NCBI GenBank assembly: GCA_963674755.2
Contig: CAXXVS010000002.1
Coordinates: forward strand, 2,432,001 to 2,496,000
DNA: 64,000 nucleotides
Direction of reading: 5' to 3'
From: Desulfobacterales bacterium
GTDB taxonomy: Bacteria; Desulfobacterota; Desulfobacteria; Desulfobacterales; UBA5852
The notes under the pieces were generated by a model. That model saw only the letters and a program-made list of their open reading frames with translations, had not been told where the DNA came from and made no database searches. Positions 18,787 through 47,415 of this stretch are shown here, piece after piece. How positions within the stretch are numbered: the stretch's first letter is position 1; every line of letters begins with the position of its first letter. The position numbers were made by a program, and so were the translations under genes.

Positions 18787-18879
18787 TTCGGCATGTCTTG
18801 CGGGTCCCATACCGCTGGCGGTGATGGGAAAAGTGAAGGCGTAACGCGAACGCAACCGCGCTCGGGATACGCCTTTTTT
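18787..18879 (+). ncRNA. Structured leader/attenuator motif, copy A (family not recognised)
   Basis: Box-like TTCGGCATGTCTTG, hairpin TCCCATACCGC/GCGGTGATGGGA, then AAAGTGAAGGCGTA...TACGCCTTTTTT; same architecture at 40719 and 47321. Confidence 0.6.
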
Positions 18880-18939
18880 GTTGGGAAGGGCCGACCAGGC
18901 ATGCCTGTCGAGACGCCCGAAGCAAAGGAGATAGAGACC

Positions 18940-20178
18940 ATGAATGAAAAGCAGTCCCTCAAAACCGCCTCGGATATCCCCCCGACGCCGGAGGTCGCAG
19001 CCCGAACCGTCGTCAGGCGCCTGCCCTTCTGGGAAGCGGACGAGTGCTTCAAATGCCCCGTCGTGGGCCTCTGCCTGAATCTTGCCGAACAAAAAAGGTT
19101 GCTGAGGAAAACGGGGGTGGCCGTTACGAAGCGCACCCCTTTCGAGGTCCACGAGATCCTGGTAGCCGGCGGGCATCAGGAAAACCGCCTGTCCCGGAAA
19201 GTCGATCGGATGCTCGAGCGAAAATTCGGTCCCGCAACCGCAGCCCTCTTTGCCCTCGATTCGCAAGCGTTTCTGGCGCATTTCAAGAGCGCCTTTGAAA
19301 CCGGCGATTATGCCGGCCCGGTATGGGCGGCGGCCGTCAATCCCCAGTTACCCATGGACACCAAGCGCGAAATCTTCGGTGTGATCCATATGACCATGCA
19401 CCAGCATGGGGCCGAGCATCTGCGGTTCAGGCAGAAAATTGCCCGGCAGCAGACCGAAATCGATAAGCTGCGCCAGCACCTCACGGAAACAGCCCGCGGG
19501 CACCGCGACCTGCAAAAACGGTATGAATGCCTGCACCACGCCCAGGCCGGTTTGAAGGCCGGACTGGCCATAGCCAAGCGCGAAAGCCAGCAGCTCAGGG
19601 AAGCCCTGGTCGGGCGCGACAAGGGGACTACTCTCGACCAGGAGAACCGCTGGCTCAAAGCAGAGCTGGAGGCGCTGCGCAGCCGGCTCGCGGACAAACA
19701 ATGCCTGGTAGTGGCCCTGAAGGAAAAACAGCGCCGGCTCGCGGCCGAACTCGATCGCCAGCAGGAGCTGAACGCGCATTTCAGAAAAGAGATTCAGGAG
19801 GCAATGTCCGGAGCCCTGACCTGCAAGACCTGCGATGCCCAATGCCCGGCCTACGATCTATGCCAGCGGCGTATCCTCATCGTAGGCGGCATGACGCGCA
19901 TGGAGTCTCTTTATCGCGGGCTCATCGAGGGCAGCGGCGGGATTTTCGACTATCACGACGGCTATCTGCACAAAGGCGCCCGCCACCTCGAATCACGCCT
20001 GCGGCGGGCGGACGTGGTCCTGTGCCCTGTAAGCTGCAACAGCCACAACGCCTGCTCCGTGGTCAAGAGCCTGGCCAAGAAACACAACAAGACCGTTCAC
20101 ATGCTTGCCAACTCAAGCTTGAACACCGTTTCCCGGGCCATCTGGGGCGAACAAAGCGATCAACATTCCCTGAATTGA
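18940..20178 (+). CDS. DUF2325-domain coiled-coil protein
   Basis: N-terminal FKCPVVGLCL, central coiled coil, CDAQCP, C-terminal ILIVGG...YHDG...ADVVLCPVSCNSHNAC..VK. Confidence 0.8.
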   Translation: MNEKQSLKTASDIPPTPEVAARTVVRRLPFWEADECFKCPVVGLCLNLAEQKRLLRKTGVAVTKRTPFEVHEILVAGGHQENRLSRKVDRMLERKFGPATAALFALDSQAFLAHFKSAFETGDYAGPVWAAAVNPQLPMDTKREIFGVIHMTMHQHGAEHLRFRQKIARQQTEIDKLRQHLTETARGHRDLQKRYECLHHAQAGLKAGLAIAKRESQQLREALVGRDKGTTLDQENRWLKAELEALRSRLADKQCLVVALKEKQRRLAAELDRQQELNAHFRKEIQEAMSGALTCKTCDAQCPAYDLCQRRILIVGGMTRMESLYRGLIEGSGGIFDYHDGYLHKGARHLESRLRRADVVLCPVSCNSHNACSVVKSLAKKHNKTVHMLANSSLNTVSRAIWGEQSDQHSLN

Positions 20179-20190
20179 GAGGAAAACCTG

Positions 20191-20559
20191 ATGAACAGCA
20201 AATTCCAAATCGGCATCCACAAAAACAACGATCATTTGCATGTCCTTCCCCGTGGCGACTTCGACGGCAATTCTGCCTGGGAATTGGTCCACAAATTGAA
20301 TGAAACTTACCGCGGGGAAAAAGAGATCATCATCGATACCAGCCGCCTGCGAAAGGTTTGTCCCTTCGGCCGAACCACCTTCGAATGCCAGATCGACCAA
20401 AGCCGCATCCCGCGGAACCGCTTCCTGTTCACCGGCGAAAAGGGCCCGATCCTCGCGCCGGAGGGCTGTCGGATTTTATCCGCCGGCCGGCCGAAGAGCT
20501 GTGGCTGCGATGGCAATTGTGCGGACTGCCATTGCCGCCAACGACGGAAACCCAACTAA
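20191..20559 (+). CDS. STAS-like hypothetical protein with Cys-rich tail
   Basis: LHVLPRGDFDGNSAWEL, IIIDT, FTGEKG, C-terminal CGCDGNCADCHC; paralog of 47981-48391. Confidence 0.65.
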   Translation: MNSKFQIGIHKNNDHLHVLPRGDFDGNSAWELVHKLNETYRGEKEIIIDTSRLRKVCPFGRTTFECQIDQSRIPRNRFLFTGEKGPILAPEGCRILSAGRPKSCGCDGNCADCHCRQRRKPN

Positions 20560-20575
20560 GAGAGGGGGGGGTAGC

Positions 20576-20773
20576 ATGGCGACCACTCGAAACAACTATG
20601 TCCGTGTCGAATTGTCCGAGGCCACCATCGCCCGACTCCTGGCCCGGGGCGAACTGTGCGCGGCCGATTTCCGCTGCCCTGACGGCCGGGCCAAGCACTG
20701 CCTCTGGCGCCTGGTTCTGGAGAGCTGCCGGGTTGAATCCCATTGCCGAAGCCGCGCTTCCCGGCGGGTATAG
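20576..20773 (+). CDS. Small Cys-containing hypothetical protein
   Basis: G-rich RBS; VELSEATIARLLARGELCAADFRC...HCLWRLVLESC. Confidence 0.5.
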   Translation: MATTRNNYVRVELSEATIARLLARGELCAADFRCPDGRAKHCLWRLVLESCRVESHCRSRASRRV

Positions 20774-20813
20774 TGCGCCCTGCGACATGTGATGAAACGA
20801 GGAGAAAAGCACG

Positions 20814-21743
20814 ATGCCAAAACTGACACTTCCCCCTGCTGCGCCTGAAGTTTCTCCGAAACCGCCCTTGCCGCCGTATCACAGTCCCCAAAACTCCTGG
20901 TCGCTATGCCTGGAGGAGCTCTGGCTGGTGTGGAACCGCCTGAAGCTGCAAGGAACGGCCACCACCCTGCTGGGCGACCGGGACGGCGGCGATACCTGCC
21001 ACCTGCTGTTTTGCTTCGAAGGCCGTGTCCTGCTGCTGGGGTTCAAGTCCGGCACCGGCAACCCCATGGACATCGAGACCGGCCACTGCGCCCTGGTCTA
21101 CCACCCCCAGGGCTGCCGCTGCATGGCCTGTGCCGGTGAAAACGGGGCCCGGGCGGTCGAAATCCAGTTCTCGCGGCGTACCCTGCTGCGCCTGATCGGT
21201 CCCCACGGCCTGCGCAACCCCCTGATCCGTTCCAAGCATGCCAAGCGTCCCCTCGAAGCCCTGCTCAAAATCACCCCGCACATGGACCGCATTCTGCACC
21301 AGACCGAGGATCTGTTAACCGGTCACGACGCGGATACCCTCTTTCTGACTTCCAAGGCCATGGAACTCATCTGGCTGTTCGACCGCCATTTTCAGCAGCC
21401 CCGCAAGCATGGCGTCAGTCGCCGGGATCAGGAAGCCGTCCATGCCGCCCAATCCATTCTGGAGGATCGCATGACAGCCCCGCCACCCCTTGAAGAGCTG
21501 GCCGGCCAGGTCGGCATGAGCCTCTCCAAACTCAAGCAGGTCTTCCCACGGGTGTGCGGCCGGCCCCCTTATACCTATCTGCGGCAGGCCCGCATGGAGC
21601 GCGCCCTCTACCTGATCCGCAGCACCGATATGAGTGTGATCGATGTGGCCTACGAGGTGGGCTACGCCAGTCCCAGCCAATTTGCACGCGCTTTTGCCGA
21701 TCAGTTCGGTTTCACACCCTCCCAGGCACGTCACACGGCTTAG
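20814..21743 (+). CDS. AraC-family transcriptional regulator (PchR-like)
   Basis: C-terminal PPLEELAGQVGMSLSKLKQVF...RMERA...SVIDVAYEVGYASPSQFARAF. Confidence 0.88.
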   Translation: MPKLTLPPAAPEVSPKPPLPPYHSPQNSWSLCLEELWLVWNRLKLQGTATTLLGDRDGGDTCHLLFCFEGRVLLLGFKSGTGNPMDIETGHCALVYHPQGCRCMACAGENGARAVEIQFSRRTLLRLIGPHGLRNPLIRSKHAKRPLEALLKITPHMDRILHQTEDLLTGHDADTLFLTSKAMELIWLFDRHFQQPRKHGVSRRDQEAVHAAQSILEDRMTAPPPLEELAGQVGMSLSKLKQVFPRVCGRPPYTYLRQARMERALYLIRSTDMSVIDVAYEVGYASPSQFARAFADQFGFTPSQARHTA

Positions 21744-21774
21744 CAGCTTGCTGAGCATGCGCTGCGGTTCCGCA

Positions 21775-21810
21775 GGCCCCGGAAACCTCCTCTGGCTTCC
21801 GGGGCTTTTT
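21775..21810 (+). terminator. Intrinsic terminator after AraC gene
   Basis: GCCCCGGAA..CC / GG..TTCCGGGGC followed by T5. Confidence 0.65.
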
Positions 21811-21825
21811 ATTTGGCTTTTGGGA

Positions 21826-21839
21826 TTAGACAACTCGAA
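21826..21839. promoter_or_regulatory. Degenerate DtxR-type box upstream of the SBP-pilin operon
   Basis: TTAGACAACTCGAA: left half identical to the boxes at 17732 and 18443; right half resembles the TTCG variant seen at 47321. Confidence 0.45.
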
Positions 21840-21950
21840 CATAGATAGAATAAACAACCATCTCGCCGGTCGGAAGCGAGTACAACCGCTTCCTCCCCCG
21901 GCAGGATTCGCCGCTCAACCGGTCACCATCGAACCCTAAAGGAGCAACAC

Positions 21951-22175
21951 TTGCCGTCCCCGCAACCCCGAAGCACAATCGCCATCCCGGACGACCATGA
22001 ACCGATTCTGCGCAAGATTTCCGAACTCTACGAAGACCTGTTCCGCCACGACGGATTCGGCGAACTGCGGGTGACCATGCGGTTTCTAAAAAAGGGACAA
22101 AAAGAGGTGGTCGTGATCTGCGGCAAGGAATTTCGCTTCGTGGTGGACTATCCAGCGAGCATCCGCCGGGGATAG
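21951..22175 (+). CDS. Small hypothetical protein
   Basis: AAGGAG RBS with TTG start; LFRHDGFGELRVTMRFLKKGQKEVVVICGKEFRFVVD. Confidence 0.65.
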   Translation: MPSPQPRSTIAIPDDHEPILRKISELYEDLFRHDGFGELRVTMRFLKKGQKEVVVICGKEFRFVVDYPASIRRG

Positions 22176-22207
22176 GCACCGTTACCCGACAACAAGGAAT
22201 AAATCCC

Positions 22208-23215
22208 ATGCTGAAACAATATCGTTTTCCGGGTCGCCGGCCGCAATTCCCCTCGCCGGTCAGGATCGCAGCCCTGCTCAGCCTCCTGGCAATACTGCTC
22301 CTGCCGGCACCCGACCCCGCCCCGGCGGCTTGCCGGTCCAAGGCGCTGGTAAAGCGCCCCATCGTCGTGATCGGCGAGCCGCTGGCCGCGGTCTGCCTGC
22401 GGTTGAACATCGCTCCCCTGGCCTGGGTGGGTCGCAAGTCCCTCTGGGAGGACGGCGCACGCCTGTCCGCGGCTTCCGAGGCCCTGGGTTGCCCGGGGCG
22501 TCTTTCCGGACCCAAGGGACTGGCCATGATCAAACGCATTCGCGCGTTAGACCCCAAGGCCGTCTATATGACGCATCTCAAGTGCCGCTACCGGCCGGAT
22601 ATCGACTATCGCAAGATTCGCAAAGCCCTGCGCGCCGAGGGGATCGAACCGCGCATCATCGCTTTCGATAACGATCCCATGGCAGCGGTGCAAGAGTTCA
22701 GCGTAGCCCTTGACCGCGCGGCCGACGGCGAGAAGCTTGCCGCGAATTATGAAAAGGCCTTCCAGCGGGCCCGCACACGGTTGGCTGCCGTTCCCAAAGG
22801 CCTGCGCGTGGCCGTGGTGTCCGGCACCTTTCAGACGGCCACGGGCAAATGCTTCACCCGGCTGGAGGCGGCCGGCGGCTACAGCGACGCCTTTGTGCTG
22901 AAAGCCGCCGGGGCCGTCAACGTGGCGGCCGACATCGTGCAGAACAGCGACAAGATCGACAAGGGGCATCTCGTCCTGCGGCGGCTGGACCGGGTCCTGG
23001 CGGCCCGGCCGGATGTGATCGCCGCCACCGGGGATGCCCTCCCCGTTGCGGTGAAGGTCGCCGGCGCCCTCAGGCGTTCCGCCTCCCAGGAAGCGGCCCC
23101 GGCGGTTTTTGCCCTGCCCCTCTATGTGGGGGCCGATCCCCTGGCCTATCCCGATGTGCTCACCCGCTGGGCGGTAGCCCTCGAAGCCGCCGCCGCGGTC
23201 GGAGATCAGAAATAA
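22208..23215 (+). CDS. Periplasmic substrate-binding protein, Fe-chelate/B12-binding-like
   Basis: Signal peptide; IVVIG...L.I.P; LKAAGAVNVA; VLAARPDVI pattern typical of helical-backbone metal receptors. Confidence 0.6.
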   Translation: MLKQYRFPGRRPQFPSPVRIAALLSLLAILLLPAPDPAPAACRSKALVKRPIVVIGEPLAAVCLRLNIAPLAWVGRKSLWEDGARLSAASEALGCPGRLSGPKGLAMIKRIRALDPKAVYMTHLKCRYRPDIDYRKIRKALRAEGIEPRIIAFDNDPMAAVQEFSVALDRAADGEKLAANYEKAFQRARTRLAAVPKGLRVAVVSGTFQTATGKCFTRLEAAGGYSDAFVLKAAGAVNVAADIVQNSDKIDKGHLVLRRLDRVLAARPDVIAATGDALPVAVKVAGALRRSASQEAAPAVFALPLYVGADPLAYPDVLTRWAVALEAAAAVGDQK

Positions 23216-23252
23216 GCATAAGGCATTGATGCCCTGGCGCTGAACAAGTGCC

Positions 23253-23276
23253 GCGCAGACCCTGGGGGTGGGTTGC
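23253..23276 (+). promoter_or_regulatory. Pilin-leader hairpin, copy 1
   Basis: GCGCAGACCCTGGGGGTGGGTTGC, 21/24 identical to 24688-24711, ending 44 nt before the ATG. Confidence 0.55.
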
Positions 23277-23320
23277 AGACACAAATAAACACCAACCCTT
23301 TCTATCCGGGAGGCATTGTC

Positions 23321-24454
23321 ATGAAACACCGAAAATGTATCTTTACGACGAACGGCTTCACCCTGCTCGAAATCCTGGTGGTGTTGACGGTCATGGGCTT
23401 TCTCATCGCCATGGTGGCCCCCCGCCTGGCCGGCCTTACCAATGATGCCAGCGGCACGGTCTGCGACACCAACAAGGGCCGAGCCCGCACCTATGTGGCG
23501 GCCTTCTACGAGAAATATGACCGTTATCCCAACGGACTCACCAATCTGGTCATGACCGACGGCACGGACCTGGCCGCCGCCAACGCCTCGGATGACGGCT
23601 ACCAGATCCCCTACTGCTCGGACGACGATCCGGAAAACGGCCCTGAAGTACTCGCCAAGGGTCACAACAAGCTCTACAAGTTCGTAATCCATCGTCTCAG
23701 TCAGGAGGAAGCCGACGAACTCAAAAGCCTGGGCCTCACCCAAGTTTACAACCTCAATGACTACGCTGCCGATGCTCCCGACCTGAACGGCGCCGCGGCC
23801 AACGGCCGTCACAACGCGGCCACAGCCTCGGACGGCGCCCGGGTCAGCAATTGGGGCAACGTCAACGCGGTCAGCGACCAGCGGCCCTCCATGGAATCCT
23901 GCACGCTTGAACAGGGTGTCGGGGTGGCCATGTGCGGCTGTGGCATCGGAGCGGTGGGCGGCACTGCCTTCACCTACGTGCAGGCGGAACGCGGGTGGGC
24001 CGAAGAAGATATCTTCGGCCGCATGGTTTTCGGTCTGGGGCCGGAATCGGAGCTGGTCACCTCGGGCATCGTCACCAACGCGGCCCACTGCCCGGGCTCC
24101 ATCCAGAACGCTGATAACTTCACCTGGGGCGGTTACTACCTGATCCTGCCGCGGCTGGAAGCCACGGTGGACCGCCTGGAAACGGCCACCTATGCCGGCT
24201 TGTGGGGCAGCGGCAGCCTCAACTACACGGCCCTGTCGTCAGACGATCTGGAGGCGGTCTCCTGGCCCAAGGGCGGAACCACGCCTTCCACCAATTATGG
24301 CATCACGGCCAACGCCGACCATTTCAAGGTGCGCAACGGCCTAGGGCTGGGGGATGCCATGGCCGTCTGGGATTTCGATACCAACCGCCAGCGCTATGAC
24401 GAGATCTGGGGTATCGACATCATGAACGCCAACCACGTGCTCAACGGCGGCTGA
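23321..24454 (+). CDS. Large type IV pilin-like protein 1 (377 aa)
   Basis: Class III signal NG|FTLLEILVVLTVMGFLIAMVAP; GGAGG RBS. Confidence 0.9.
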   Translation: MKHRKCIFTTNGFTLLEILVVLTVMGFLIAMVAPRLAGLTNDASGTVCDTNKGRARTYVAAFYEKYDRYPNGLTNLVMTDGTDLAAANASDDGYQIPYCSDDDPENGPEVLAKGHNKLYKFVIHRLSQEEADELKSLGLTQVYNLNDYAADAPDLNGAAANGRHNAATASDGARVSNWGNVNAVSDQRPSMESCTLEQGVGVAMCGCGIGAVGGTAFTYVQAERGWAEEDIFGRMVFGLGPESELVTSGIVTNAAHCPGSIQNADNFTWGGYYLILPRLEATVDRLETATYAGLWGSGSLNYTALSSDDLEAVSWPKGGTTPSTNYGITANADHFKVRNGLGLGDAMAVWDFDTNRQRYDEIWGIDIMNANHVLNGG

Positions 24455-24579
24455 CGGAAGGCCGCCCGTTTATAAAAAACAGTCGGCCCACGGAAAGGAG
24501 GTGATGGCCGGAAACCGAACCCAACGGGCCGCCCGGGGCGGTCCGCCTGTCACGGCAGGGCGCCGGAAGGAAACCTTGC

Positions 24580-24657
24580 ATTTCGCCAAAGCCAAACCCC
24601 GGGCAACCGGGGGACGGAAAGCCGCGGGTCCCGCGGGGACGGCCGGGCTGCCGGAAT
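24580..24657 (+). ncRNA. GEMM-I (c-di-GMP-I class) cyclic dinucleotide riboswitch
   Basis: AAAGCCAAACC-CCGG-GCAA-CCGG-GGGACGGAAAGCC-GCGGGTC-CCGCGGG-GACGGCCGGGCTGCCG, with P1 ATTTCG/CGGAAT. Confidence 0.88.
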
Positions 24658-24687
24658 CTCTGACAATCTGTATTTCAACCGCCTGCG

Positions 24688-24711
24688 GCGCAGACCCTGT
24701 GGCGGGGTTGC
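24688..24711 (+). promoter_or_regulatory. Pilin-leader hairpin, copy 2
   Basis: GCGCAGACCCTGTGGCGGGGTTGC, ending 43 nt before the ATG. Confidence 0.55.
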
Positions 24712-24754
24712 CGCTGCGCAAGACCATTTTTTCTACTTTAAAGGAGAGACTGCA

Positions 24755-25861
24755 ATGCAACGCCACACCAACCGTATGACCCGCAACCAAGGTTTTACCC
24801 TGCTCGAAATCCTGGTGGTCCTCACCATCATGGGTTTCCTCATCGCCATGGTGGCCCCGCGTCTGGCCGGCATCTCCAGTGAAGCCGTGGACACGGTATG
24901 CGACACCAACCAGAACCGCACCATCACGATGGTGGCCGCTTATTTTGAAAGAACCGGCAAGTTCCCCAACAAGCTGACCAACCTTGTTGCGGTGGAGGGT
25001 ACCGATTGGGATGACGCAACTTACTATACCCCGAGCGTCAGCGATGGCGACCCGGATAATGGCCAGGAAACCCTGGCCGCGGAATTCGGCGAGCGCGTCC
25101 ATCCGATGATCCACTACCTGAGCGCGGACGAAGCCCAGGAACTGGCCGACATGGGCATCAAAAAACTGTTCAACCTCAACGCCTATGACAACTTCACCAC
25201 CGACGGAACCGACCACGGCCCGGATGGAACAACGCCTATTGCCGATGCCAACCAAGGCAACCCCATGGAAGAAGTCACCCCGGATGATGTGGATTATACG
25301 ACGGGACAATTTGCCGTCATGATGTCCGGCATGGGCGTCGATTCCGCTGGCGCTTGGCAGACGGAAACCCTTACCGGCTTTGGCGAAGCCCAATTCCTAG
25401 GCCGTATCGTCCTTGGTTTCGGTCCGGAAAACGGTCTGGTCACGTCCGGTATCGTCACCAACGCGGCCCATTGCCCCGGTGGTCTGCAGAATTCCGACAA
25501 CATCACCTACAACGACTACAACCTGATCGTGCCCCGGCTGCAATCCACGGTAGATCGTTTGGACGAAACCACTCCTGAGATCACGGACCTGGCGACCTCA
25601 ATCACCGGCATCCAGTACGCGGCCTATGGGTACACCGAAAATTTTGACACGAGTAGCGGTATTACGGCGGCCACGTTTGATACCGACGGTACCGTTCTCA
25701 CCTCACCGACCGGCATAAAAACCAGGTTGATGACCTTTGGTGCCCAGGAAAACTACGAGTACTCCACCATGTGCCCCGAGGGTCATATGTATCCGGCTGA
25801 CGATTCCGATTTCTGGGCAGTCAATCCGGACAACGCTAGTTTTGTCGCTACGGACTTCTGA
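24755..25861 (+). CDS. Large acidic type IV pilin-like protein 2 (368 aa; candidate major pilin)
   Basis: QG|FTLLEILVVLTIMGFLIAMVAP; AAGGAG RBS; paralog of pilin 1 (shared TVCDTN, LTNLV, LVTSGIVTNAAHCPG, PRL..TVDRL). Confidence 0.9.
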   Translation: MQRHTNRMTRNQGFTLLEILVVLTIMGFLIAMVAPRLAGISSEAVDTVCDTNQNRTITMVAAYFERTGKFPNKLTNLVAVEGTDWDDATYYTPSVSDGDPDNGQETLAAEFGERVHPMIHYLSADEAQELADMGIKKLFNLNAYDNFTTDGTDHGPDGTTPIADANQGNPMEEVTPDDVDYTTGQFAVMMSGMGVDSAGAWQTETLTGFGEAQFLGRIVLGFGPENGLVTSGIVTNAAHCPGGLQNSDNITYNDYNLIVPRLQSTVDRLDETTPEITDLATSITGIQYAAYGYTENFDTSSGITAATFDTDGTVLTSPTGIKTRLMTFGAQENYEYSTMCPEGHMYPADDSDFWAVNPDNASFVATDF

Positions 25862-25896
25862 TAAAGAATCCTGAAAGACCTTAACAGGAGCGTATC

Positions 25897-25920
25897 AGCG
25901 GGGAGGGCAACCTCCCCGCT
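25897..25920 (+). terminator. Perfect 10-bp hairpin with GCAA tetraloop after pilin 2 (mRNA stabiliser or leaky terminator)
   Basis: AGCGGGGAGG-GCAA-CCTCCCCGCT; no immediate T-run. Confidence 0.6.
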
Positions 25921-26013
25921 CTCAACTTTTAGATAAAACAGATCCGATCCGCCGCTCAGCACTTTCACCGTTTCCTAGCAGAGCACGGGAACGAGAGGTA
26001 ACCAACAAACCAA

Positions 26014-28083: not shown

Positions 28084-28153
28084 ACCGCTGAGGGAGCAGG
28101 CGCATGTTGGACGAATGGACGCGAATGGATTCTGTGCATTGAAAATCGAACGC

Positions 28154-36697: not shown

Positions 36698-36928
36698 ATG
36701 AAACACAAGTTGATTCTTCATTCATTATATCTCAGCATGATCATCATGAATATCGGGATTGCCCTGGCCTTCGGCATCTTGCCAACCTTTGTGATGGCGT
36801 TGCTGACCATGATCCACTGGATGGCCACTTCTTTAAAAGAAGAAGAAGTATTGTTGCAGAAATTTCCCGATGCCGATCGCCAATATAAAAAAAAGGCGCC
36901 ATGGCGACTGCCTCCGGGGGATTTTTGA
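36698..36928 (+). pseudogene. C-terminal remnant of an ICMT/PEMT-family membrane methyltransferase
   Basis: HSLYLSMI...EEEVLLQKF...YKKKAPWRL.PG matches only the C-terminal motif; N-terminal TMs absent; AT-rich. Confidence 0.5.
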
Positions 36929-36989
36929 CGGGCATAAGAAGCATATGGCCTTTATGGCCGATCACCGTATCCAAATTGCAGAGAAGACG

Positions 36990-37796: not shown

Positions 37797-37822
37797 CCCT
37801 GAACTCTTTTGGGAAGAGATTT

Positions 37823-39237: not shown

Positions 39238-39533
39238 CATGGATCCTCGGAGCGATTCTTTTGATGGGAACGCCGGCCCCGGCCTTGGCTCACACGGCCA
39301 TCATCGACTGCATGGAAGCCGATGGTGAGTGCCAATGCCAAGGTTTCTTTTCGGACATGTCGCCAGCCACCGGAGCCCGGGTGACCGTTATAGACGATAC
39401 CGGCCAGATAATTCGACAGGGGGAAATCGACGTACACGGCGAATTCTCCTTTCCGCTACCGAATACCCATTACCGGGTCTACATGCATGCTGGTCCGGGT
39501 CACAACGCCGAACCCTGCGACCCGACCGAATGA
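39225..39533 (+). CDS. Small exported protein with predicted N-terminal His (paralog of 43601)
   Basis: AAGGAG RBS; ALA|HTAIIDC...CQGFFSD...GEFSF...AGPGH. Confidence 0.7.
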   Translation: MRRLTWILGAILLMGTPAPALAHTAIIDCMEADGECQCQGFFSDMSPATGARVTVIDDTGQIIRQGEIDVHGEFSFPLPNTHYRVYMHAGPGHNAEPCDPTE

Positions 39534-39569
39534 GACATGCTCTCAATTACTTGATGGAAAGCACCCCGA

Positions 39570-39950
39570 ATGGTTGAAATCATCCGACGACTGATCGTGG
39601 CGGGCCTGGCCATCGGGGTCATTGCCGGCAACGCCGACGAGATCACCCGCTTCTACGACGAAACCGTGGCCCACGCCCGGCATCTGGCCACGGCGGCCGA
39701 TCTGCGCAGCATCAGCAACATGCTGGACTATGCCTTCATGAAGCGGGGACGCTACCCGCGTCCCGTGCAATTCGCTGATTGGCTGGCGCGAACCTTCAAG
39801 GAAAACCCCATGCAGGACCTGGGCCGCGATCATTGGGGACAATGGCTGGTCTATGAGACCGATGCGGCCCAACGCCGATTTACCCTGACCAGCATGGGTC
39901 CGGACGGAATGGCCGGCACCGCCGACGACCTGCGCGTCAGCGGCCCCTGA
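39570..39950 (+). CDS. GspG-like C-terminal domain protein lacking a canonical prepilin cleavage site
   Basis: GRYP, DHWGQ..VY, SMGPDGMAGTADD. Confidence 0.7.
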   Translation: MVEIIRRLIVAGLAIGVIAGNADEITRFYDETVAHARHLATAADLRSISNMLDYAFMKRGRYPRPVQFADWLARTFKENPMQDLGRDHWGQWLVYETDAAQRRFTLTSMGPDGMAGTADDLRVSGP

Positions 39951-39964
39951 AAGGAGAAAACACC

Positions 39965-40471
39965 ATGACATCGACAACGATTCGCGCCCTGGATAAGACG
40001 ACCCATACCCGACGCAAGCGCTTCCAGCGCCGCAACTACTTCATCAACAAACCTTTTCAGCTGGCCTTCGCCGGCAACATGCTTCTGATCGCCGCCTTGG
40101 GAATGCTGGTCACGGCCCTGACGGTGAGCTGGATTTTCATCTATATCTTGGACGACCAATTGTGCACCGTCTTACTGCACCCGGGTTATCTTCTTAAATT
40201 GGGCATCATACTGGTTTGCCTGGCGGCGGGAATCCTGACCTGGACGGTGCTGCGAACCCATGCCATTGCGGGTCCCGTCTATAAGACCCGCCAGGTGCTC
40301 CGAGCCGCGGCCGAAGGGCGCTTCCCGGACCGGCCGGTGACTTTCCGTAAAAGCGATGCCTTCAAGGATCTGGCCGGCGATCTCAACCGCTGCCTGGATG
40401 CCATGCGCGCCGACCGGAAACGGCTGCGGGGTCTGGAAACATTGTCGCAAAACGACCCCGAAATGCCTTAA
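39965..40471 (+). CDS. Two-TM HAMP-like membrane protein
   Basis: RRNYFINKPFQ, two TMs, THAIAGPVY, FRKSDAFKDLA. Confidence 0.65.
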   Translation: MTSTTIRALDKTTHTRRKRFQRRNYFINKPFQLAFAGNMLLIAALGMLVTALTVSWIFIYILDDQLCTVLLHPGYLLKLGIILVCLAAGILTWTVLRTHAIAGPVYKTRQVLRAAAEGRFPDRPVTFRKSDAFKDLAGDLNRCLDAMRADRKRLRGLETLSQNDPEMP

Positions 40472-40654
40472 AGCGTTCCTAAACATCCGACGCGAGGTCT
40501 CCGGGACAGATCGGCCGGTCTCGGTGGGATCCTGGCAGACCCCATGAAAGATTTTTTGCCAGGGCCGAATTTCAGAACACCCTGAAGACGCAGCCACTTT
40601 GTTGTCGCCTGTCTGGGAAACCTCGACCAAAAATCCTATTCCCCCAAAAACCCC

Positions 40655-40732
40655 TTGACAACACGACACCCCTATTGTTATTAGCAATTCCTCAAGTCGT
40701 TAGGGTTATCTAATTTCTATCGACTTGCCTTA
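40655..40732 (+). promoter_or_regulatory. feoAB promoter with three DtxR-type boxes at 19-bp period
   Basis: TTGACA 40655-40660, TATTAG 40679-40684; boxes TTAGCAATTCCTCA 40681, TTAGGGTTATCTAA 40700, ATCGACTTGCCTTA 40719. Confidence 0.75.
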
Positions 40733-40860
40733 CGGTCTTCGGCCGGTCGCAGGCGCGAAGAAAGTGAAGGCGCAACACGCGGTTCGGCATCCATGTGACG
40801 CATCCCCGGGGATGATGTCACTGATGGATGACTGCCAACCAAGCGGTTGCGCCTTTTTTT
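40719..40860 (+). ncRNA. Structured leader/attenuator motif, copy B
   Basis: Hairpin TCTTCG..CGAAGA, then AAAGTGAAGGCGCAAC, long inner stem, GTTGCGCCTTTTTTT. Confidence 0.6.
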
Positions 40861-40892
40861 ATGGTCACATGCCATTGGGGAAGGAGCCGAAC

Positions 40893-41123
40893 ATGACCTT
40901 GGACGAATTGAAGCCCGGCAGCGAGTGCCGGATCAAACGCTTGTCGGTGCGGGACAAATTGGGCCAGCGACTGATGGATATGGGGGTTTACCCCGGCCTG
41001 CGGCTGAAGGTGGTGCGCAATGCCCCCCTCAAAGATCCCATGGAGGTCGAACTGGACGGCTATTTCGTGAGCCTGCGCCATGATGAGGCCCGCTTCGTGG
41101 AGGTCGAACACTGTGAGCGCTGA
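40893..41123 (+). CDS. feoA: Ferrous iron transport protein A
   Basis: MTLDELKPG, QRLMDMG, VRNAPLKDPM, SLRHDEA. Confidence 0.95.
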   Translation: MTLDELKPGSECRIKRLSVRDKLGQRLMDMGVYPGLRLKVVRNAPLKDPMEVELDGYFVSLRHDEARFVEVEHCER

Positions 41124-43581
41124 CAAGGTTCTTGTAGCCCTGGCCGGCCAGCCCAACTGCGGCAAATCGACGGTATTCAACGCCCTCACCGGCGCCCGCC
41201 AGCATGTGGCCAACTATCCCGGCGTCACCGTCGACAAGATGACCGGCTGGTACAAACACAACGGTCTGCGGGTTGAAGTGGTGGATCTGCCCGGCACCTA
41301 CAGCCTGACCTCTTATTCCCCCGAGGAGCGGGTCTCCCGGGACTTTATTCTCCACGATCAGCCCTCCGTGACGGTGAACGTGATGGACGCCGCCAATCTC
41401 AAGCGTTGCCTCTATCTGACCTTTCAACTGCTGGAGATGGAGACCCCGCTGGTCCTCAATCTCAACATGATGGATACCGCCGCCAAGCGCGGCATGGCCA
41501 TTAATGTTCAAAAGCTTTCCGAGCGCCTGGGTATCCCGGTCGTGCCCACAACCATGAAAAACGGGCAGGGCAAAAGGGACCTTTTGGAAACCATTGCGAC
41601 CCTGGCCGGCGGCGGGCGGACCAAGCCGGCAGCACGCATCGATTACGGAGAGCTGGAGCCCTGCCTGCGGGAAGTGGAAACGCGGCTGGCCGATACCGGC
41701 GCGCTTTTGGAAACCCAGGCCCGGCGCTGGACGGCCATCAAACTCATGGAGGGCGATAGCGAGATTCAGCGGCTACTCCGGCAGAACAATCCTGAAGCCG
41801 AAACCTTGCTGGCCGCCGTTGAAACCCTGCGGGAGGATTTCGAAAAACGCCACGGGGTGGCCTCCGAGGTCGCCATTGCCGACCGCCGCTATCGCATGGC
41901 GGACGATATCGCACGTTCCGCCCTGACAATGGCCGGCGGTGCCAAACGCCCCCTTTCGGATAAAATCGACGCCCTGGTCTGCCATCGCTTTCTGGGACCG
42001 GCCATCATGGTGGGGATCATCTGGCTGCTCTACTACCTGTCCATTGTTCAGGGCTACAACATCACCAACTATACCTGGCCGCTGCTGGCCAAACTACGCA
42101 GTCTGACCGAAGCAGTGATGCCGGCCCCGGGATTCATCGAAATTCCGCTGATCCGCGCCCTATCCCTCTGGATGGTGGACAGCGTCAATGCGCTGCTGAA
42201 TTACATTCCTATTTTCTTTATTCTTTTCGGTCTGATCGCCATTTTGGAGGACAGCGGGTATATGCCGCGCATGGCCTTCATCATGGACAAGCTGTTCAGC
42301 CGTTTCGGCCTGCACGGCCAGTCCACCCTGCCCATGGTGCTAGGAGGCATCTACGTCGGCGGCTGCGCCGTGCCGGGGGTCATGTCCTGCAAAGGCATTC
42401 CGGACGAACGCTCGCGTCTGGCCACCATCCTGATCATCCCCATGCTCAACTGCCTGGCCAAGGTGCCGCTCTACGTGCTGCTGATCAATATCTACTTTGC
42501 GGCCCACAAGGCCTGGGCCATGTTTTTCATTTCCACCATCAGCCTGCTGCTGGTGCTGCCGGTATCCAAAATACTGACCCTGACCGTTCTCAAGGACAAA
42601 GAGACGGCCCCCTTTGTCATGGAGATGCCGCCCTATCACCTGCCCACCCTGCGGGGCGTACTGGGCCGGGCCCTGGAGCGGGTCTGGCTGTTCATGCGCA
42701 AGATCACCACCATTGTTGTCGCGGTGGCGGTGGTGGTTTTCGTGCTGCTCCAGTTCCCGGGAATCGACGAGAAGCGCATGACGCACTACAAGACCCGCCA
42801 GGAAAAGGCGGCGGCCGCGTTTTTTAAAAAAATAGGAAAGACGTCCTATGTCGATAAACTCCGGGGCGACAACCTGATGGCATTGATCATCTACGGGGAC
42901 GACTACAAGGCCGCCCGCATGGGGGCCAAAAGCGAGGCCGCCCTGGCCGAACTGAACGCCGCCTTTGAAGCGCGCAATCCGGATTATTTTGCGGTCGTGC
43001 GGCGCGACGGCAAGGACGGCAAAACCGTGAACCGGGCGCTTAAAAATCTCGTGCGAACCCGCAAAGGGCTGCTGCTCGATATGCGCAAGGAACGCATCGA
43101 CAAAAGCTTTCTGGGCACCATGGGGCGCTGGCTGGAGCCGGTGACCCGCTGGGCCGGCTTCAACTGGCGGGTGAATGTGGCCCTGCTGAGCGCCCTGGCC
43201 GCCAAGGAAAGCAGCGTGGCCACCCTGGGCGCCCTGTATGAGCCGCAAGAAGAGGGCGAAGCCCTGGAAGAACGCATGGCCCGGGGCGAGGAAGGCTTCA
43301 CCCCCCTGCACGCCCTGGCCCTGATGCTTTTCATGGTGCTCTACCCGCCCTGCCTGGCCACCGCCATTGCGGTCAAATTGCAGGCGGGCTCGGTCAAATG
43401 GATGCTGTTTTCCATCGCTTATCCCATGGCGCTGGGGCTGGCTGTGGCGACCCTCGTCTTTTCCCTGGGCCGGGCCCTGGATTTTAGCGGACTTCAGGCC
43501 ATGTTCGCCTTTTACGGCCTGGCCCTGGCGTTTACCCTATTCATGGGCCTTATCAAAAACCAACCGGAATACGCATCATAA
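41113..43581 (+). CDS. feoB: Ferrous iron transport protein B
   Basis: GQPNCGKST, VANYPGVTV, DLPGTYSL, NMMD, LEDSGYMPR, FVMEMPPYH, AKES, LYPPC; GTG start assumed. Confidence 0.95.
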   Translation: MSADKVLVALAGQPNCGKSTVFNALTGARQHVANYPGVTVDKMTGWYKHNGLRVEVVDLPGTYSLTSYSPEERVSRDFILHDQPSVTVNVMDAANLKRCLYLTFQLLEMETPLVLNLNMMDTAAKRGMAINVQKLSERLGIPVVPTTMKNGQGKRDLLETIATLAGGGRTKPAARIDYGELEPCLREVETRLADTGALLETQARRWTAIKLMEGDSEIQRLLRQNNPEAETLLAAVETLREDFEKRHGVASEVAIADRRYRMADDIARSALTMAGGAKRPLSDKIDALVCHRFLGPAIMVGIIWLLYYLSIVQGYNITNYTWPLLAKLRSLTEAVMPAPGFIEIPLIRALSLWMVDSVNALLNYIPIFFILFGLIAILEDSGYMPRMAFIMDKLFSRFGLHGQSTLPMVLGGIYVGGCAVPGVMSCKGIPDERSRLATILIIPMLNCLAKVPLYVLLINIYFAAHKAWAMFFISTISLLLVLPVSKILTLTVLKDKETAPFVMEMPPYHLPTLRGVLGRALERVWLFMRKITTIVVAVAVVVFVLLQFPGIDEKRMTHYKTRQEKAAAAFFKKIGKTSYVDKLRGDNLMALIIYGDDYKAARMGAKSEAALAELNAAFEARNPDYFAVVRRDGKDGKTVNRALKNLVRTRKGLLLDMRKERIDKSFLGTMGRWLEPVTRWAGFNWRVNVALLSALAAKESSVATLGALYEPQEEGEALEERMARGEEGFTPLHALALMLFMVLYPPCLATAIAVKLQAGSVKWMLFSIAYPMALGLAVATLVFSLGRALDFSGLQAMFAFYGLALAFTLFMGLIKNQPEYAS

Positions 43582-43600
43582 CAGAAGGGAGGATTGCACC

Positions 43601-43927
43601 ATGCACAAACGCACCATCATTTTCCTATACGCCCTGGCCATCGGGCTGATTCTGGGGAGCGGCGCCGCCTGGGCCCACACCCCGCTGTGTTCCTGCTACG
43701 ACAACGGCGACGGGACCGTTACCTGCGAAGGCGGCTTTTCGGACGGCTCTTCGGCCTCCGGGGTGCAGATGCGCGTGGAGGACGGCAGCGGCGCCAAGCT
43801 GATCGGGGGCAAGATGGACGAATTCAGCGAATTCACTTTTGAAAAGCCTTCCGGGGACTACCGGGTCGTCTTCGACGCCGGTGAGGGGCACCGCATCGAA
43901 ATCGACGGGAAGGAAATCCTCGAGTAA
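43601..43927 (+). CDS. Small exported protein with predicted N-terminal His
   Basis: GGAGG RBS; AWA|HTPLCSCYDNGDGTVTCEGGFSDGS...FDAGEGH. Confidence 0.8.
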   Translation: MHKRTIIFLYALAIGLILGSGAAWAHTPLCSCYDNGDGTVTCEGGFSDGSSASGVQMRVEDGSGAKLIGGKMDEFSEFTFEKPSGDYRVVFDAGEGHRIEIDGKEILE

Positions 43928-44040
43928 AGCGGTACCTCCGGCGCACGGATCATATCCCGATCCCGAACCGAGGCGATCAGGAATGGTTGTTCACATCACC
44001 GAAAACGAGAAGACAATTCATGACGAAAGGAGTTTGTTCG

Positions 44041-44841
44041 ATGCGAAAGACAATTGCGGTAATGGCCGGTTTGCTGACCCTGGCCGTGGCGGTTCCGGCC
44101 ATGGCCCATTTCCAGATGATCTACACGCCCGAGTCGGCCCTGGATAAGGCCGGGGAAATCGACCTCAAGATGGTCTTCACCCATCCCTTCGAGGCCGGAC
44201 ACACCATGGACATGGGCCAGCCCGAGCAGTTTTTCGTGGTCCGCAAGGAGAAAAAAAGCGATCTGCTCGGCACCCTGAAGCCCATCACCTGGACCAGCCT
44301 CACCAACAGCGGGGCGGCCTACGAAACCAGCTACAAGCTGCGCGGCATGGGGGATAATGTTTTCTGCCTGGTGCCGGCCCCCTACTACGAGGCCGAAGAA
44401 GAAGTCTACATCCAGCAGATCACCAAGATGGTGGTCAACACCGCCGGTTTCCCCACCGACTGGGACGCCGAGGTCGGCCTGTCGGCGGAAATCGTTCCTC
44501 TGGACAAACCCTACGCTCTATGGACGGGAAATGTCTTCCGGGGGATCGTCAAGGGTGGCGGGAAACCGGTCCCTTATGCCGAGATCGAGGTGGAATACCT
44601 GAACCACGCCCCTATGATGGACAAGAATGCTTTCGCCGCCAAGGCCGCTGTAGAAGCGCCCCAGGACGCTTTTGTCACCATGACCATCAAGGCCGATGCA
44701 GACGGCGAATTTTCCTTCGGAATTCCCAAGGCCGGCTGGTGGGGCTTTTGCGCCCTGGGGGCCGGGCCGGTCAAGGAGCACCAGGGCAAGGAGCTTTCCC
44801 AGGACGCCGTTATCTGGGTCCAGGCCCGGGATATGAAGTAG
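44041..44841 (+). CDS. DUF4198-family periplasmic metal-uptake protein
   Basis: AMA|HFQMIY, THPF.AGH, EIVPL.KPY, GKPVPYAEIEVEY, GWWGF. Confidence 0.82.
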   Translation: MRKTIAVMAGLLTLAVAVPAMAHFQMIYTPESALDKAGEIDLKMVFTHPFEAGHTMDMGQPEQFFVVRKEKKSDLLGTLKPITWTSLTNSGAAYETSYKLRGMGDNVFCLVPAPYYEAEEEVYIQQITKMVVNTAGFPTDWDAEVGLSAEIVPLDKPYALWTGNVFRGIVKGGGKPVPYAEIEVEYLNHAPMMDKNAFAAKAAVEAPQDAFVTMTIKADADGEFSFGIPKAGWWGFCALGAGPVKEHQGKELSQDAVIWVQARDMK

Positions 44842-45049
44842 TGTCCATCCCAGAGATGGCATCTTTCGGCCCCGACCGGCGTTCTGGTTCTCTGGAAATC
44901 CTCGCCGTAGCCCAGCTACGCCTCCGGTTTCCACCCACAGCGGGGTTGGATCAGACGGGAAGTCCCGACTAGCGGGATAATATCCAGCAGTGCTGGACAA
45001 TTCCCTGCGGCCTTGGCCGAAACCAAAATCTACCATCTCTGGGCGGACA
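44842..45049. mobile_element. MITE-like element, family 2
   Basis: Imperfect terminal IRs TGTCCATCCCAGAGATGG (44842-44859) / CCATCTCTGGGCGGACA (45033-45049); inner TTCGGCC/GGCCGAA pair; internal CGTAGC..GCTACG hairpin; starts right after a TAG stop. Confidence 0.6.
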
Positions 45050-45169
45050 TAAACTAGTAACGCCTTTGCCGCGGACCTCCTCGCCCGCGGCAAGTGATCA
45101 CCGGGCGGCCGCCGAACACCCCGCCGGCCGCCCGGTGGTCTTCCTTTAACGATAACCACAGGACGGTGT

Positions 45170-45787
45170 ATGGCGCACATTCTTATCCTTTTGGCCGGCA
45201 GTAGCTTTCTGGCGGTACTGCTTTTCAAAGGGTGGTGCCTGCGCCTTGCCGGTTACGACGTCAAAGGCCGGCCGCCTGTCTCCCGGCCGGTTTTTCTAGC
45301 CGGCAAAACCGCCATGGGTCTATTGTGGGGGCTGACTTTGTGGCGCGCTGCGGCGGCCGTGAGAATGCCCGGAGAGCCCGTGACATGGCTCCAGTATAGC
45401 GGAACCATTCTGTTTGTCGCCGGCAGCAGTGTGGCTTTAATATCTTTTGCCGCCCTCGGCCGCGAGCTGCGCTTCGGGCTTCCGAACGGTAACTGCCGTT
45501 TGAAAGCCAGCGGTATCTATAGCTGGTCACGTCACCCTATGTATACGGGCTTTTTCCTGATGGCCGGCGGGGCTGCCCTCTATGTCGGCACCCCTCTGGC
45601 GGTCGTTTGCCTGTTGGTGGCGGTGGGCATCCACCATCGTGTGGCGCTGGCCGAAGAGCGCTTTATGGCCCGGCACTTTGGCGTCGCCTGGCAAGCCTAT
45701 ACCGAAAACGTGCCGCGTTACGGCGGCCTGATCTACACGCTTCTCAAACGATCGGAGCAGGGTCACGACCAACGTCATTGGAGTTGA
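45170..45787 (+). CDS. Isoprenylcysteine carboxylmethyltransferase (ICMT/PEMT) family membrane protein
   Basis: LKASGIYSWSRHPMYTG, AEERFM..HFG..W.AY...VPRY. Confidence 0.82.
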   Translation: MAHILILLAGSSFLAVLLFKGWCLRLAGYDVKGRPPVSRPVFLAGKTAMGLLWGLTLWRAAAAVRMPGEPVTWLQYSGTILFVAGSSVALISFAALGRELRFGLPNGNCRLKASGIYSWSRHPMYTGFFLMAGGAALYVGTPLAVVCLLVAVGIHHRVALAEERFMARHFGVAWQAYTENVPRYGGLIYTLLKRSEQGHDQRHWS

Positions 45788-45816
45788 GCACCCGGCCCAT
45801 CGTTAAGGATAATGTC

Positions 45817-45993
45817 ATGGAATTGTTACTTGTCCTGCTCGTTTTCGGCGCTGCCTTTTGGTACCTATTCCGGCGCTTTCGCCGTTCCATCAGTTCCGAC
45901 AATCCGTCCTGCGCGTGCGGCGGCTGCGATGGCTGTCCGGCGCAGGGCAATCTTCACAAAGACAGGGACCGGCCGGATGCAGACCAGCGTTAA
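45817..45993 (+). CDS. FeoB-associated Cys-rich membrane protein
   Basis: Single TM followed by SCACGGCDGCP. Confidence 0.75.
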   Translation: MELLLVLLVFGAAFWYLFRRFRRSISSDNPSCACGGCDGCPAQGNLHKDRDRPDADQR

Positions 45994-46222
45994 CGCCCTT
46001 ATCGTTCAGCATACCATTGCCGGACGCATCCGCTTGCGGATTCCTTTGATTCGCCAAAGCGCTGAAATCCGCGAGCGGTGCATTTTTATGGAAACCCTGG
46101 CGCTGATGGATGGTGTGCCCGACCGGCTGATCAATCAGCTCATTATGACCGGTTTTGCCGCTTCCCTCGCAACCTGCACACGCACGTTCTATAGTCAACC
46201 GCAAAGGAGACCGCTTCCATGA
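45977..46222 (+). pseudogene. Degenerate HMA2-like domain fragment
   Basis: VQHTIAGRIRLRIP and L..MDGV resemble the start of HMA2; no downstream ATPase. Confidence 0.4.
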
Positions 46223-47247
46223 CATCCCTTCCGGTTTTGCAAACGAGTTATCAAGTCCTGCACGATATGACGGCCGGCCCGATTCGATCCCGCCTGCTGA
46301 TGGCCGGCATCGAGCTGGGTGTCTTTGATGAACTGGAGACCTTCCGCGCCGCTACTGCGGTGGCCGCCGCCATCGGGACACATAACGGCAATACCGAACG
46401 GCTTCTGAACGCTCTGGTGACGGTCGGTCTGCTGGAGAAAAGGGCGGGCCGCTTTCGCAACAGTCCGGTGGCGCAGGCCTACCTGATGCGATCCTCGGCG
46501 ACCTTTTTAGGTCCTTTCCTGGACCTGGTGGACACCATGTGCGTGACCTCCCTCGATGATCTCTGCGAACGGGTGAAGCACGGCCCGGCGACACCTTCCC
46601 CGGAAACCGATTTCAGCGCCGAGGCCCTCTGGGCGGAGGTCACCCGGGCGAGTGCCGGCTGGGTGAAAGGTTTTGTGGGCCCGCAGGTGGCGGCCATCGT
46701 CGCCGGTCTGCCCGAGTTCCCGGCGTTCCGGCGCATGCTGGATTTGGGCGGCGGCCACGGCCTGTTCGCCCTCTATTTCGTCGAGGCCCATCCGAACATG
46801 ACGGCCGTGGTGTTCGACCGCCCTGCCGTCTTGGCGGTGGCGGAGAATTTTGCCGGGGAATATGCCCTGCAAGACCGCGTGTCGATGATGGCGGGCGATT
46901 ACCTGACCGACGCCATCGGCAGCGGGTACGATTTCATCTGGGCCTGCTCCACCCTGAATTTCGCCCGCCACGATCTGGATCCCCTGACCACGAAAATCCA
47001 CGAGGCGCTGAATCCCGGCGGCGTTTTCATCAGTTTTCAGGACGGCCTGACTCACGAGCGGACTTGGCCCGCCGTTATGCTGGGGCACCTGGGCGATATG
47101 CTCCGCACGGGGCGGGACCTGGCCTTCGACCAGGGAGAAATCGGCGCGGCGGCCCTGCGCTGCGGATTCCGTTCGGTGCACTCCCGCACCATCGAACTGC
47201 CCATGGGAGCCATGGACATGGATGTCGCCCGCAAAAATTCGTTTTGA
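46219..47247 (+). CDS. SAM-dependent O-methyltransferase with dimerisation domain
   Basis: AGIELGVFDEL, RLLNALV.VGLL, MLDLGGGHG, VFDRP, AGDY, ALNPGG. Confidence 0.88.
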   Translation: MTSLPVLQTSYQVLHDMTAGPIRSRLLMAGIELGVFDELETFRAATAVAAAIGTHNGNTERLLNALVTVGLLEKRAGRFRNSPVAQAYLMRSSATFLGPFLDLVDTMCVTSLDDLCERVKHGPATPSPETDFSAEALWAEVTRASAGWVKGFVGPQVAAIVAGLPEFPAFRRMLDLGGGHGLFALYFVEAHPNMTAVVFDRPAVLAVAENFAGEYALQDRVSMMAGDYLTDAIGSGYDFIWACSTLNFARHDLDPLTTKIHEALNPGGVFISFQDGLTHERTWPAVMLGHLGDMLRTGRDLAFDQGEIGAAALRCGFRSVHSRTIELPMGAMDMDVARKNSF

Positions 47248-47258
47248 TGAAATACTGC

Positions 47259-47334
47259 TTGACAGGCAAGGAATTCCCATTGTACGGTATTTCTAAATGA
47301 ATTAGGTAATTCTATTTTATTTCGACATACCTTA
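47259..47334 (+). promoter_or_regulatory. Promoter with three DtxR-type boxes at 19-bp period
   Basis: TTGACA 47259-47264; boxes TACGGTATTTCTAA 47283, TTAGGTAATTCTAT 47302, TTCGACATACCTTA 47321. Confidence 0.7.
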
Positions 47335-47415
47335 CGTCCGGCGACCGTCTGGTGGTGCGCAGGGAAGTGAAGGCGCAAGCGATTTCGCAACTCGCGAAAT
47401 CCCTGCGCCTTTTTT
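47321..47415 (+). ncRNA. Structured leader/attenuator motif, copy C
   Basis: Hairpin TCCGGCGACC..GGTGCGCAGGGA, AAGTGAAGGCGCAAG, inner GATTTCGC/GCGAAATC, CTGCGCCTTTTTT. Confidence 0.6.

Follow-up and report, generated by a model that had tools for sequence, protein, structure and literature searches.

In this study, we describe a leader-RNA family, apparently undescribed, that we followed from a 64,000-nt stretch of a Desulfobacterales genome (hereafter the window; assembly GCA_963674755.2, contig CAXXVS010000002.1, positions 2,432,001 to 2,496,000 of the forward strand). The window carries three copies of the leader (A, B and C) together with the gene of a 97-amino-acid protein, orf97, whose stop codon lies 14 nt before copy A. 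That the family is real and has the orf97 domain as candidate partner is strongly supported by the homologs compared here. We propose, with a probability of about 0.8, that the RNA is a protein-controlled transcription attenuator in which orf97 would bind the nascent antiterminator rod and block the lower pairs of the terminator. No description of this RNA or protein was found in the literature searched; PMC11109978, in its accessible part, reports a Desulfobacteraceae motif and 107 protein-binding candidates, and its supplement may contain the RNA. The central features are:

18787..18879, + strand: leader copy A (coordinates, folding)
40719..40860, + strand: leader copy B, with an extra long hairpin within the terminator
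47321..47415, + strand: leader copy C (coordinates, folding)
18479..18772, + strand: orf97, a 97-aa all-helical candidate antiterminator (conservation, structure model, RNA linkage)

The three leaders lie where the initial annotation of the window had placed them, with 14-mers at 18787, 40719 and 47321, the core AAGTGAAGGCGYA at 18831 (A), 40762 (B) and 47365 (C), and terminator arms at 18868, 40848 and 47404, respectively. Each of them is able to fold in two ways. Folding of a whole copy yields a hairpin plus the terminator. Folding of a copy cut before the terminator 3' arm yields another rod, in which the 3' half of the 14-mer pairs with GUGAAGGC. In this antiterminator rod of about 40-50 nt, RYCUURC pairs with GUGAAGGC with one G bulged, forming stem P1, and is followed by a GG/AA internal loop and a hairpin (P2) of free sequence with a loop of 3-12 nt. 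In copy A, the 5' strand of P1 occupies 18795-18801, the purine internal loop, the P2 hairpin and the shared strand (18831-18843) come next, and the terminator 3' arm, starting at 18868, runs into the U-run. The 14-mer, originally read as a box-like element, corresponds for the most part to the 5' strand of an antiterminator stem, in competition with the terminator: its 3' half pairs with GTGAAGGC, a pairing absent from the earlier reading, whereas conservation does not extend to its 5' half (TCGRC in 4 of 127 copies, the family consensus there being RGGRAT). The inner region, described as stem-forming in B and C, indeed forms a stem in both, and does so in copy A as well. The C/T change between copies is compensated as had been noted, column pair 65-102 reading CG in 22, UA in 21 and UG in 21 of the 65 aligned rows. 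The antiterminator pairing, the partner protein and the operators were not part of the earlier interpretation. In copy B, a nearly perfect extra hairpin (40777-40847) sits within the terminator stem, and this region is much longer than in most homologs; it is possibly an inserted repeat.

Only these three places in the 6.7-Mb genome match the exact 13-mer core, and a covariance model search of the same genome returns the same three copies, which rules out a genome-wide dispersed repeat. With two mismatches allowed, the 13-mer has 3 matches compared to a shuffle mean of 1.94, i.e., not above shuffles; this count is thus weak alone, and the case for the leaders rests on the whole architecture and on the homologs. 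The folding z-scores are -2.75 (A), -4.92 (B) and -2.78 (C). As the initial annotation expected, no Rfam family, czcD (NiCo) included, matches the three copies at E<=5, and at the same threshold the motif has no match throughout the window or in 13 homologous loci.

Of 61 related genomes searched with the leader pattern, 14 matched, with 27 loci in all; 15 loci outside the window have the full architecture, 9 of the 27 failed the terminator pattern, and none of 12 genomes of the same genus matched the leader pattern. A scan of genome contigs returned at least 122 stretches with the leader pattern, and among the 80 titles listed most were Desulfobacterales and other Deltaproteobacteria, with two Acidobacteriota. 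From 132 distinct pattern-derived sequences five were dropped (L065, L087, L130 and L139 as probable chance matches, L131 as mis-anchored) and 127 were kept. The terminator is the more stable fold in every one of these 127 copies, with a median of 5.0 kcal/mol, and P1 reaches a probability above 0.5 in 122 of the 127 transcripts when they are cut before the terminator arm. The leaders combine a mutually exclusive antiterminator and intrinsic terminator, in the geometry of an attenuator with OFF as its default. Among the minor matches, G135 and G170 (about 27 bits in the phylum sample) resemble plain terminators. The leader L107, from a record titled WOR-3, is identical to that of L068, a Desulfobacterales record, which suggests mis-binning.

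The pairing is well preserved across the family. The first six P2 pairs are kept in 116, 123, 118, 114, 116 and 111 of 127 copies; for the three outer pairs of P1, these counts are 127, 121 and 106. The initial annotation had asked for covariation in homologs, and in an alignment of roughly every second copy (65 rows) it is present for both folds: double-change cells number 124 for the antiterminator rod (38.7 in shuffles) and 76 for the terminator (18 in shuffles), with far lower values in slid controls for both. The P1 core and the terminator core are invariant in this alignment since they were fixed by the search pattern, and cannot covary there. Divergent copies, however, were reached through the protein and not through the pattern. 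In that of G088, concerted changes in the 5' strand of P1, the shared strand and the terminator arm keep both P1 and the terminator, and that of G182 has one compensated P1 pair.

The RNA is closely linked to orf97. Starting from the protein, we kept the 80 best of 229 metagenome loci, 76 of which extend at least 100 nt past the stop. The RNA lies within 250 nt downstream of the orf97 stop in 67 of these 76 and within 40 nt in 55, and upstream of the gene in none; orf97 homologs precede the leader whichever gene comes downstream. In a sample of 150 genomes of the order, 27 have the RNA, 28 have orf97 and 25 have both. The nearest RNA is within 400 nt of orf97 in 20 of these 25 genomes, and more than 3 kb away (once 366 kb) or on another contig in the other five; beyond the 25, G215 has a weak RNA beside its orf97 gene. 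The cultured Desulfosarcina alkanivorans PL12 carries the RNA as well as the orf97 gene. In a phylum sample of equally 150 genomes, all six with strong RNA matches encode orf97, and the other two protein matches are G182, with its divergent RNA lacking a U-run, and G189, with a receiver fusion. Two other candidate partners were rejected on the order sample. DUF2325 is present in 37 of the 150 genomes, 19 of them shared with the RNA, so that 18 holders lack the RNA and 8 of the 27 RNA genomes lack DUF2325; DtxR, present in 110 of 150, is unspecific.

Some linked loci depart from the usual arrangement. After the orf97 stop in L192, L201, L206 and L246, the antiterminator rod is kept and the terminator is missing; a promoter-like TTGACA follows the rod in the first three, and a full leader copy stands further on in L192 and L201. 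In L170, from a genome (G069) with two orf97 genes, two tandem leader rods follow orf97, the second being degenerate.

The protein itself has no Pfam or NCBIfam match near cut-off. Its C-terminus is a conserved basic helix-turn-helix, R-K/R-x-F-K-S-K-x-L-E-x-L-R-K, in which F77, S79 and R86 are invariant and R74, K78 and E83 near-invariant. In contrast, no cysteine is invariant in the family; His26 is found in 91 of 135 homologs, C-x3-4-C in 22 of 135 stand-alone members, and C-x4-C before the hairpin in all 18 fusion loci described below. The structure model is a helical hairpin with generic structural matches only (Z<=7.1), and neither fold nor sequence searches of solved structures gave a specific match. 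A homodimer prediction scored 0.25 compared to a mark of 0.42, and a tblastn search of plasmids returned no match. The domain is matched by 695 clusters (50% identity) at E<=0.001. One protein, P0168, resembles a DtxR repressor's C-terminal portion linked to an orf97 domain and may be a deletion or an assembly artefact.

All nine longer orf97 homologs are receiver-domain fusions with the orf97 domain at the C-terminus; PF00072 matches in these 9 and in all 18 fusion loci of genomes, and the fusions keep the invariant Asp, Thr and Lys of phosphorylation. The fusion is encoded in 15 of 91 genomes of one class, belonging to the phylum of G316 (record title Acidobacteriota). At 10 of the 18 loci, the fusion gene is followed, about 60-155 nt past its stop, by a variant RNA whose upper P1 has an additional pair. 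The class-I model, which was not trained on variants, scores four of these ten at E <0.001, and four have a clear terminator with U-run, two others a weak one. The bare variant pattern was not above its control, so that a model built from the ten variants (R2) was used instead. Of the 15 fusion genomes, 14 have strong matches to R2 (best E no higher than 1.2e-13). Nine of the 15 had contributed to its training; among the six held out, the variant RNA is strong in five, 2-9 kb away or on another contig. The 76 genomes without fusion have no strong variant match and four weak ones (22-24 bits). The genes after the ten variants encode PAS, kinase or receiver proteins in eight cases (one also with a hemerythrin gene) and have no Pfam match in two. 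Further variant RNAs (L340, L346, L347, L342 and L350) precede genes that, judged by eye, resemble CheA-type kinase operons and HTH regulators, and the fusion proteins may thus control small regulons.

The RNA and the orf97 domain are the only features seen to be shared between the iron island and these signalling loci. That the RNA class follows the protein class, with nothing else seen in common, is our main argument that the domain reads the RNA. Moreover, a variant RNA that tracks receiver fusions before signalling genes argues against an iron riboswitch or small RNA (sRNA) and for ANTAR-like antitermination by an unrelated domain. The initial annotation had offered a protein-responsive attenuator as one option, which the competing folds, the orf97 linkage and the fusions support, and iron-repressed trans-acting sRNAs analogous to RyhB or PrrF as another. 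Copies B and C would indeed yield short terminated transcripts under operator control. Yet every copy checked is located in cis, upstream of genes and on their sense strand, with its conserved letters paired or bulged in the stem that competes with the terminator; the antiterminator is conserved whereas the P2 and loop sequences are free. We regard the sRNA explanation as the least probable of those considered. Alternatively, the reader of the RNA might be a general factor of the host, be it a Nus factor, a ribosomal protein or the polymerase, with orf97 acting otherwise, e.g., by protein-protein interaction. The generic helical hairpin without specific structural match would fit this. However, about 120 of the 150 order genomes gave no RNA match, although all of them are expected to have such host factors, and the correspondence between RNA class and protein class holds in two phyla; we consider a host factor very unlikely.

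Several observations weigh against orf97 as the reader of the RNA, or against the attenuator as such. The covariation of P1 rests on the few divergent copies. In 7 of the 76 protein-picked loci there is no model match downstream. Even a wider profile found no orf97 in G218, with nine RNA matches, or in G040. These two assemblies are broken into 520 and 480 contigs, respectively, and in G218 one of the copies starts at the edge of its contig, preceded at the customary distance by a TAA. No orf97 was found either in G318, which carries two RNAs, and G251 and G266 have a weak or broken orf97 and no RNA. Among the ten adjacent variant RNAs, four have no U-run or terminator, and the fusion genes of G666, G595 and G189 are without a variant RNA. 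In addition, co-transfer on a patchy island explains part of the co-occurrence, gene and RNA being usually neighbours, and the related genomes in these counts are not independent. Given kin genomes and the usual adjacency, linkage alone is no proof of a functional pair.

The genes and sites around the leaders in the window are:

17707..17764, + strand: putative promoter of the dtxR-like gene, with -35 TTGACA at 17707
17732 (8/8) and 17751 (7/8): operator-like palindromes TTAG-N6-CTAA in that promoter
17776..18327, + strand: DtxR/MntR-family metal-dependent repressor (Pfam PF01325, PF02742)
18443..18456, + strand: operator-like palindrome (8/8) directly before the 97-aa gene
18940..20178, + strand: long DUF2325 protein (PF10087), first gene after copy A
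40655..40713, + strand: feo operon promoter, with TTGACA at 40655 and operator-like sites at 40681 (7/8) and 40700 (8/8)
40893..43581, + strand: feoA (40893-41123) and feoB (to 43581)
47259..47315, + strand: promoter before copy C, with TTGACA at 47259 and an operator-like site at 47302 (7/8)
47540..49377, + strand: genes after copy C, namely two ORFs without Pfam match, a flavodoxin and a second DtxR-family gene
48322-48825, + strand: the flavodoxin
48982-49377, + strand: the second DtxR-family gene

Across the family, 85 distinct first downstream ORFs were picked automatically, some of them probably mis-started. They comprise 26 FeoA, 1 FeoB, 2 FeoC, 9 DUF2325, 4 TonB-dependent receptors, 2 flavodoxins, 3 members of the FeMo-cofactor-binding family, 3 HD-domain and 3 porin-like proteins and 5 other families, and 27 have no Pfam match. 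This iron- and metal-related context, FeoA above all, would suit a riboswitch binding Fe2+, Mn2+ or a similar metal, as also offered initially, with orf97 as a merely co-inherited member of the iron regulon; the purine loop and the bulge are invariant, and G218, G040 and G318 have the RNA without a detected orf97. The conserved fold is, however, the ON state, so that a metal ligand would turn uptake genes on at plentiful metal, which is the wrong sign. The rod is simple, with a free P2 loop and no four-way junction, and in Acidobacteriota the variant stands before genes for PAS, kinase and receiver proteins and accompanies the receiver-fused domain. A metal riboswitch is therefore disfavoured and appears to us just as improbable as a host factor.

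Of the sigma70 promoters claimed before copies B and C, the two TTGACA hexamers are present, but their -10 counterparts are weak and a consensus promoter scan called neither promoter. Of 93 stand-alone homologs of the leader, 64 are preceded by TTGAC[AT]. These copies also bear on translation-coupled attenuation, in which a ribosome ending or stalling on orf97 would cover the P1 strand past the stop. The RNA model begins 2-10 nt past the orf97 stop in most linked loci and the C-terminal peptide of orf97 is extremely conserved, as this mechanism would lead one to expect. Nevertheless, no orf97 gene ends within about 150 nt of copies B and C or of the 93 stand-alone copies, most of the latter have the TTGAC[AT] of their own, and the fusion genes end well ahead (about 60-155 nt) of their RNA. 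We hold such coupling to be marginally less credible still than a metal riboswitch.

The palindrome motif TTAG-N6-CTAA, which was derived from this window, resembles DtxR boxes. An operator score of at least 7/8 is reached upstream of 54 of the 93 stand-alone leaders, compared to 2 of 90 downstream controls and 6.5% of shuffles, and a site of this quality lies near 45 of 76 homologous orf97 gene starts. The window itself contains two DtxR-family genes, the product of the first matching the NCBIfam MntR and DtxR models below their cut-offs, and palindromic operator-like sites at promoters thus coincide with nearby repressor genes, as in a DtxR/MntR regulon. The palindrome is a putative operator of these DtxR-family repressors, with iron as their putative metal, and iron probably enters the system through these sites. 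Two more sites (7/8) lie at 49122 and 49374, within and at the end of the second DtxR-family gene, and 12 further perfect ones occur elsewhere in the genome.

From the computed folds, covariation, gene context, co-occurrence and domain fusion, we infer termination in vivo, direct binding, the binding surface and operator function in the following course. In the nascent leader, RYCUURC would pair with GUGAAGGC and close the rod. Without protein, the AAGGC strand would be captured by the terminator, which is about 5 kcal/mol more stable, and transcription would stop at the U-run. The basic C-terminal helix-turn-helix of orf97 would bind the conserved bulge and internal loop and hold P1, allowing the polymerase to read into feoAB, the DUF2325 gene or the flavodoxin genes. 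Iron would act one level up, via a DtxR-type repressor on the TTAG-N6-CTAA operators before both the leaders and orf97. Low iron would lift the repression of both, and expression would need derepression as well as accumulated orf97, providing a double lock or a delay. In Acidobacteriota, the same domain would be the output of phosphorylated response regulators reading the variant RNA. More tentatively, and in our view rather doubtful, the basic helix-turn-helix might be an undescribed RNA-binding output domain of response regulators whose stand-alone form itself senses iron, Fe-S or redox state via His26 and nearby cysteines. Such direct sensing by orf97, if true, would give anaerobes an analogue of the IRE/IRP system that acts at transcription, on top of DtxR repression.

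If the attenuator operates as proposed, a two-layer iron control by repressor and attenuator would be described for sediment anaerobes. The same domain would act during iron starvation in Desulfobacterota and within two-component systems in Acidobacteriota. A domain outside Pfam, and response regulators annotated by their receiver alone, would thereby gain a function. A 97-aa protein and a 55-nt RNA with two natural specificity classes could also serve as an orthogonal switch.

Around the leaders, two related small ORFs (20191-20559 and 47981-48391, ~30% identity, without Pfam match) recur in many leader loci, and a basic 128-aa ORF without family (47540-47926) is the first gene after the leader here and in L077 and L099. 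Chromate-resistance genes (ChrB, chromate transporter; 51533-55207, - strand) adjoin the iron island. A c-di-GMP-I-GGC riboswitch (24582-24656, + strand; RF03167, 66.1 bits, above gathering) precedes a run of pilin-like and type IV pilus/T2SS genes.

To our knowledge, the sequence-specific antiterminator proteins of bacteria fall into few known families: CAT, ANTAR, HutP, PyrR, GlpP and TRAP. The hut operon of Bacillus offers a similar layout, with the gene of the antiterminator HutP first and a terminator after its stop codon, as for orf97 and copy A. HutP binds single-stranded UAG repeats, however, which are absent here, and no HutP family match was found in orf97, four homologs or four fusions. 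Similar to the czcD (NiCo) riboswitch, our leader RNA stands before metal-transport genes in anaerobes. In the accessible part of PMC9389577, czcD riboswitches have a four-way junction aptamer and often precede putative efflux ATPases. In contrast, the family described here has no Rfam match and no such junction, precedes uptake instead of efflux genes and has a candidate protein partner.

The resemblance is closer to BglG/SacY/LicT and their RAT hairpins, where the regulator gene lies beside its target and, as far as the part of PMC3369931 available goes, a protein holds a hairpin that partly overlaps the terminator. Likewise, our leaders form a single stem-loop partly overlapping the terminator and would be held by a protein. 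RAT measures 29-30 nt, whereas the rod has about 40-50 nt and a free P2. CAT is a beta domain, unlike the all-helical orf97, and neither CAT nor PRD has a Pfam match in orf97 or the fusions, or among the best five families of the 66 window ORFs. With the ANTAR proteins (AmiR, NasR, EutV), orf97 shares a small helical putative RNA-binding output domain that also occurs fused to receivers (in all longer homologs and fusion loci), the holding of a structure that excludes an intrinsic terminator, and several target leaders per genome. Receiver fusion and dual-hexaloop RNAs are ANTAR features in the accessible portions of PMC3369931 and PMC8934654. In place of two hexaloop hairpins, our RNA forms a single rod interrupted by a bulge and an internal loop, and it precedes iron and signalling genes where ANTAR targets are mainly nitrogen genes. 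The ANTAR Pfam family has no match at E<=1 in orf97, four homologs and four fusions. The output domain of ANTAR proteins is a three-helix bundle; the helical hairpin modelled for orf97 has generic structural matches, and EutV ranks 39 in a fold search with the fusion model (TM 0.56, rmsd 7.6), which the shared receiver may explain. The system thus appears to work like ANTAR or BglG antitermination while being a member of neither, the domains of both being absent and the RNA different, and would add a candidate antiterminator family whose RNA target is already defined.

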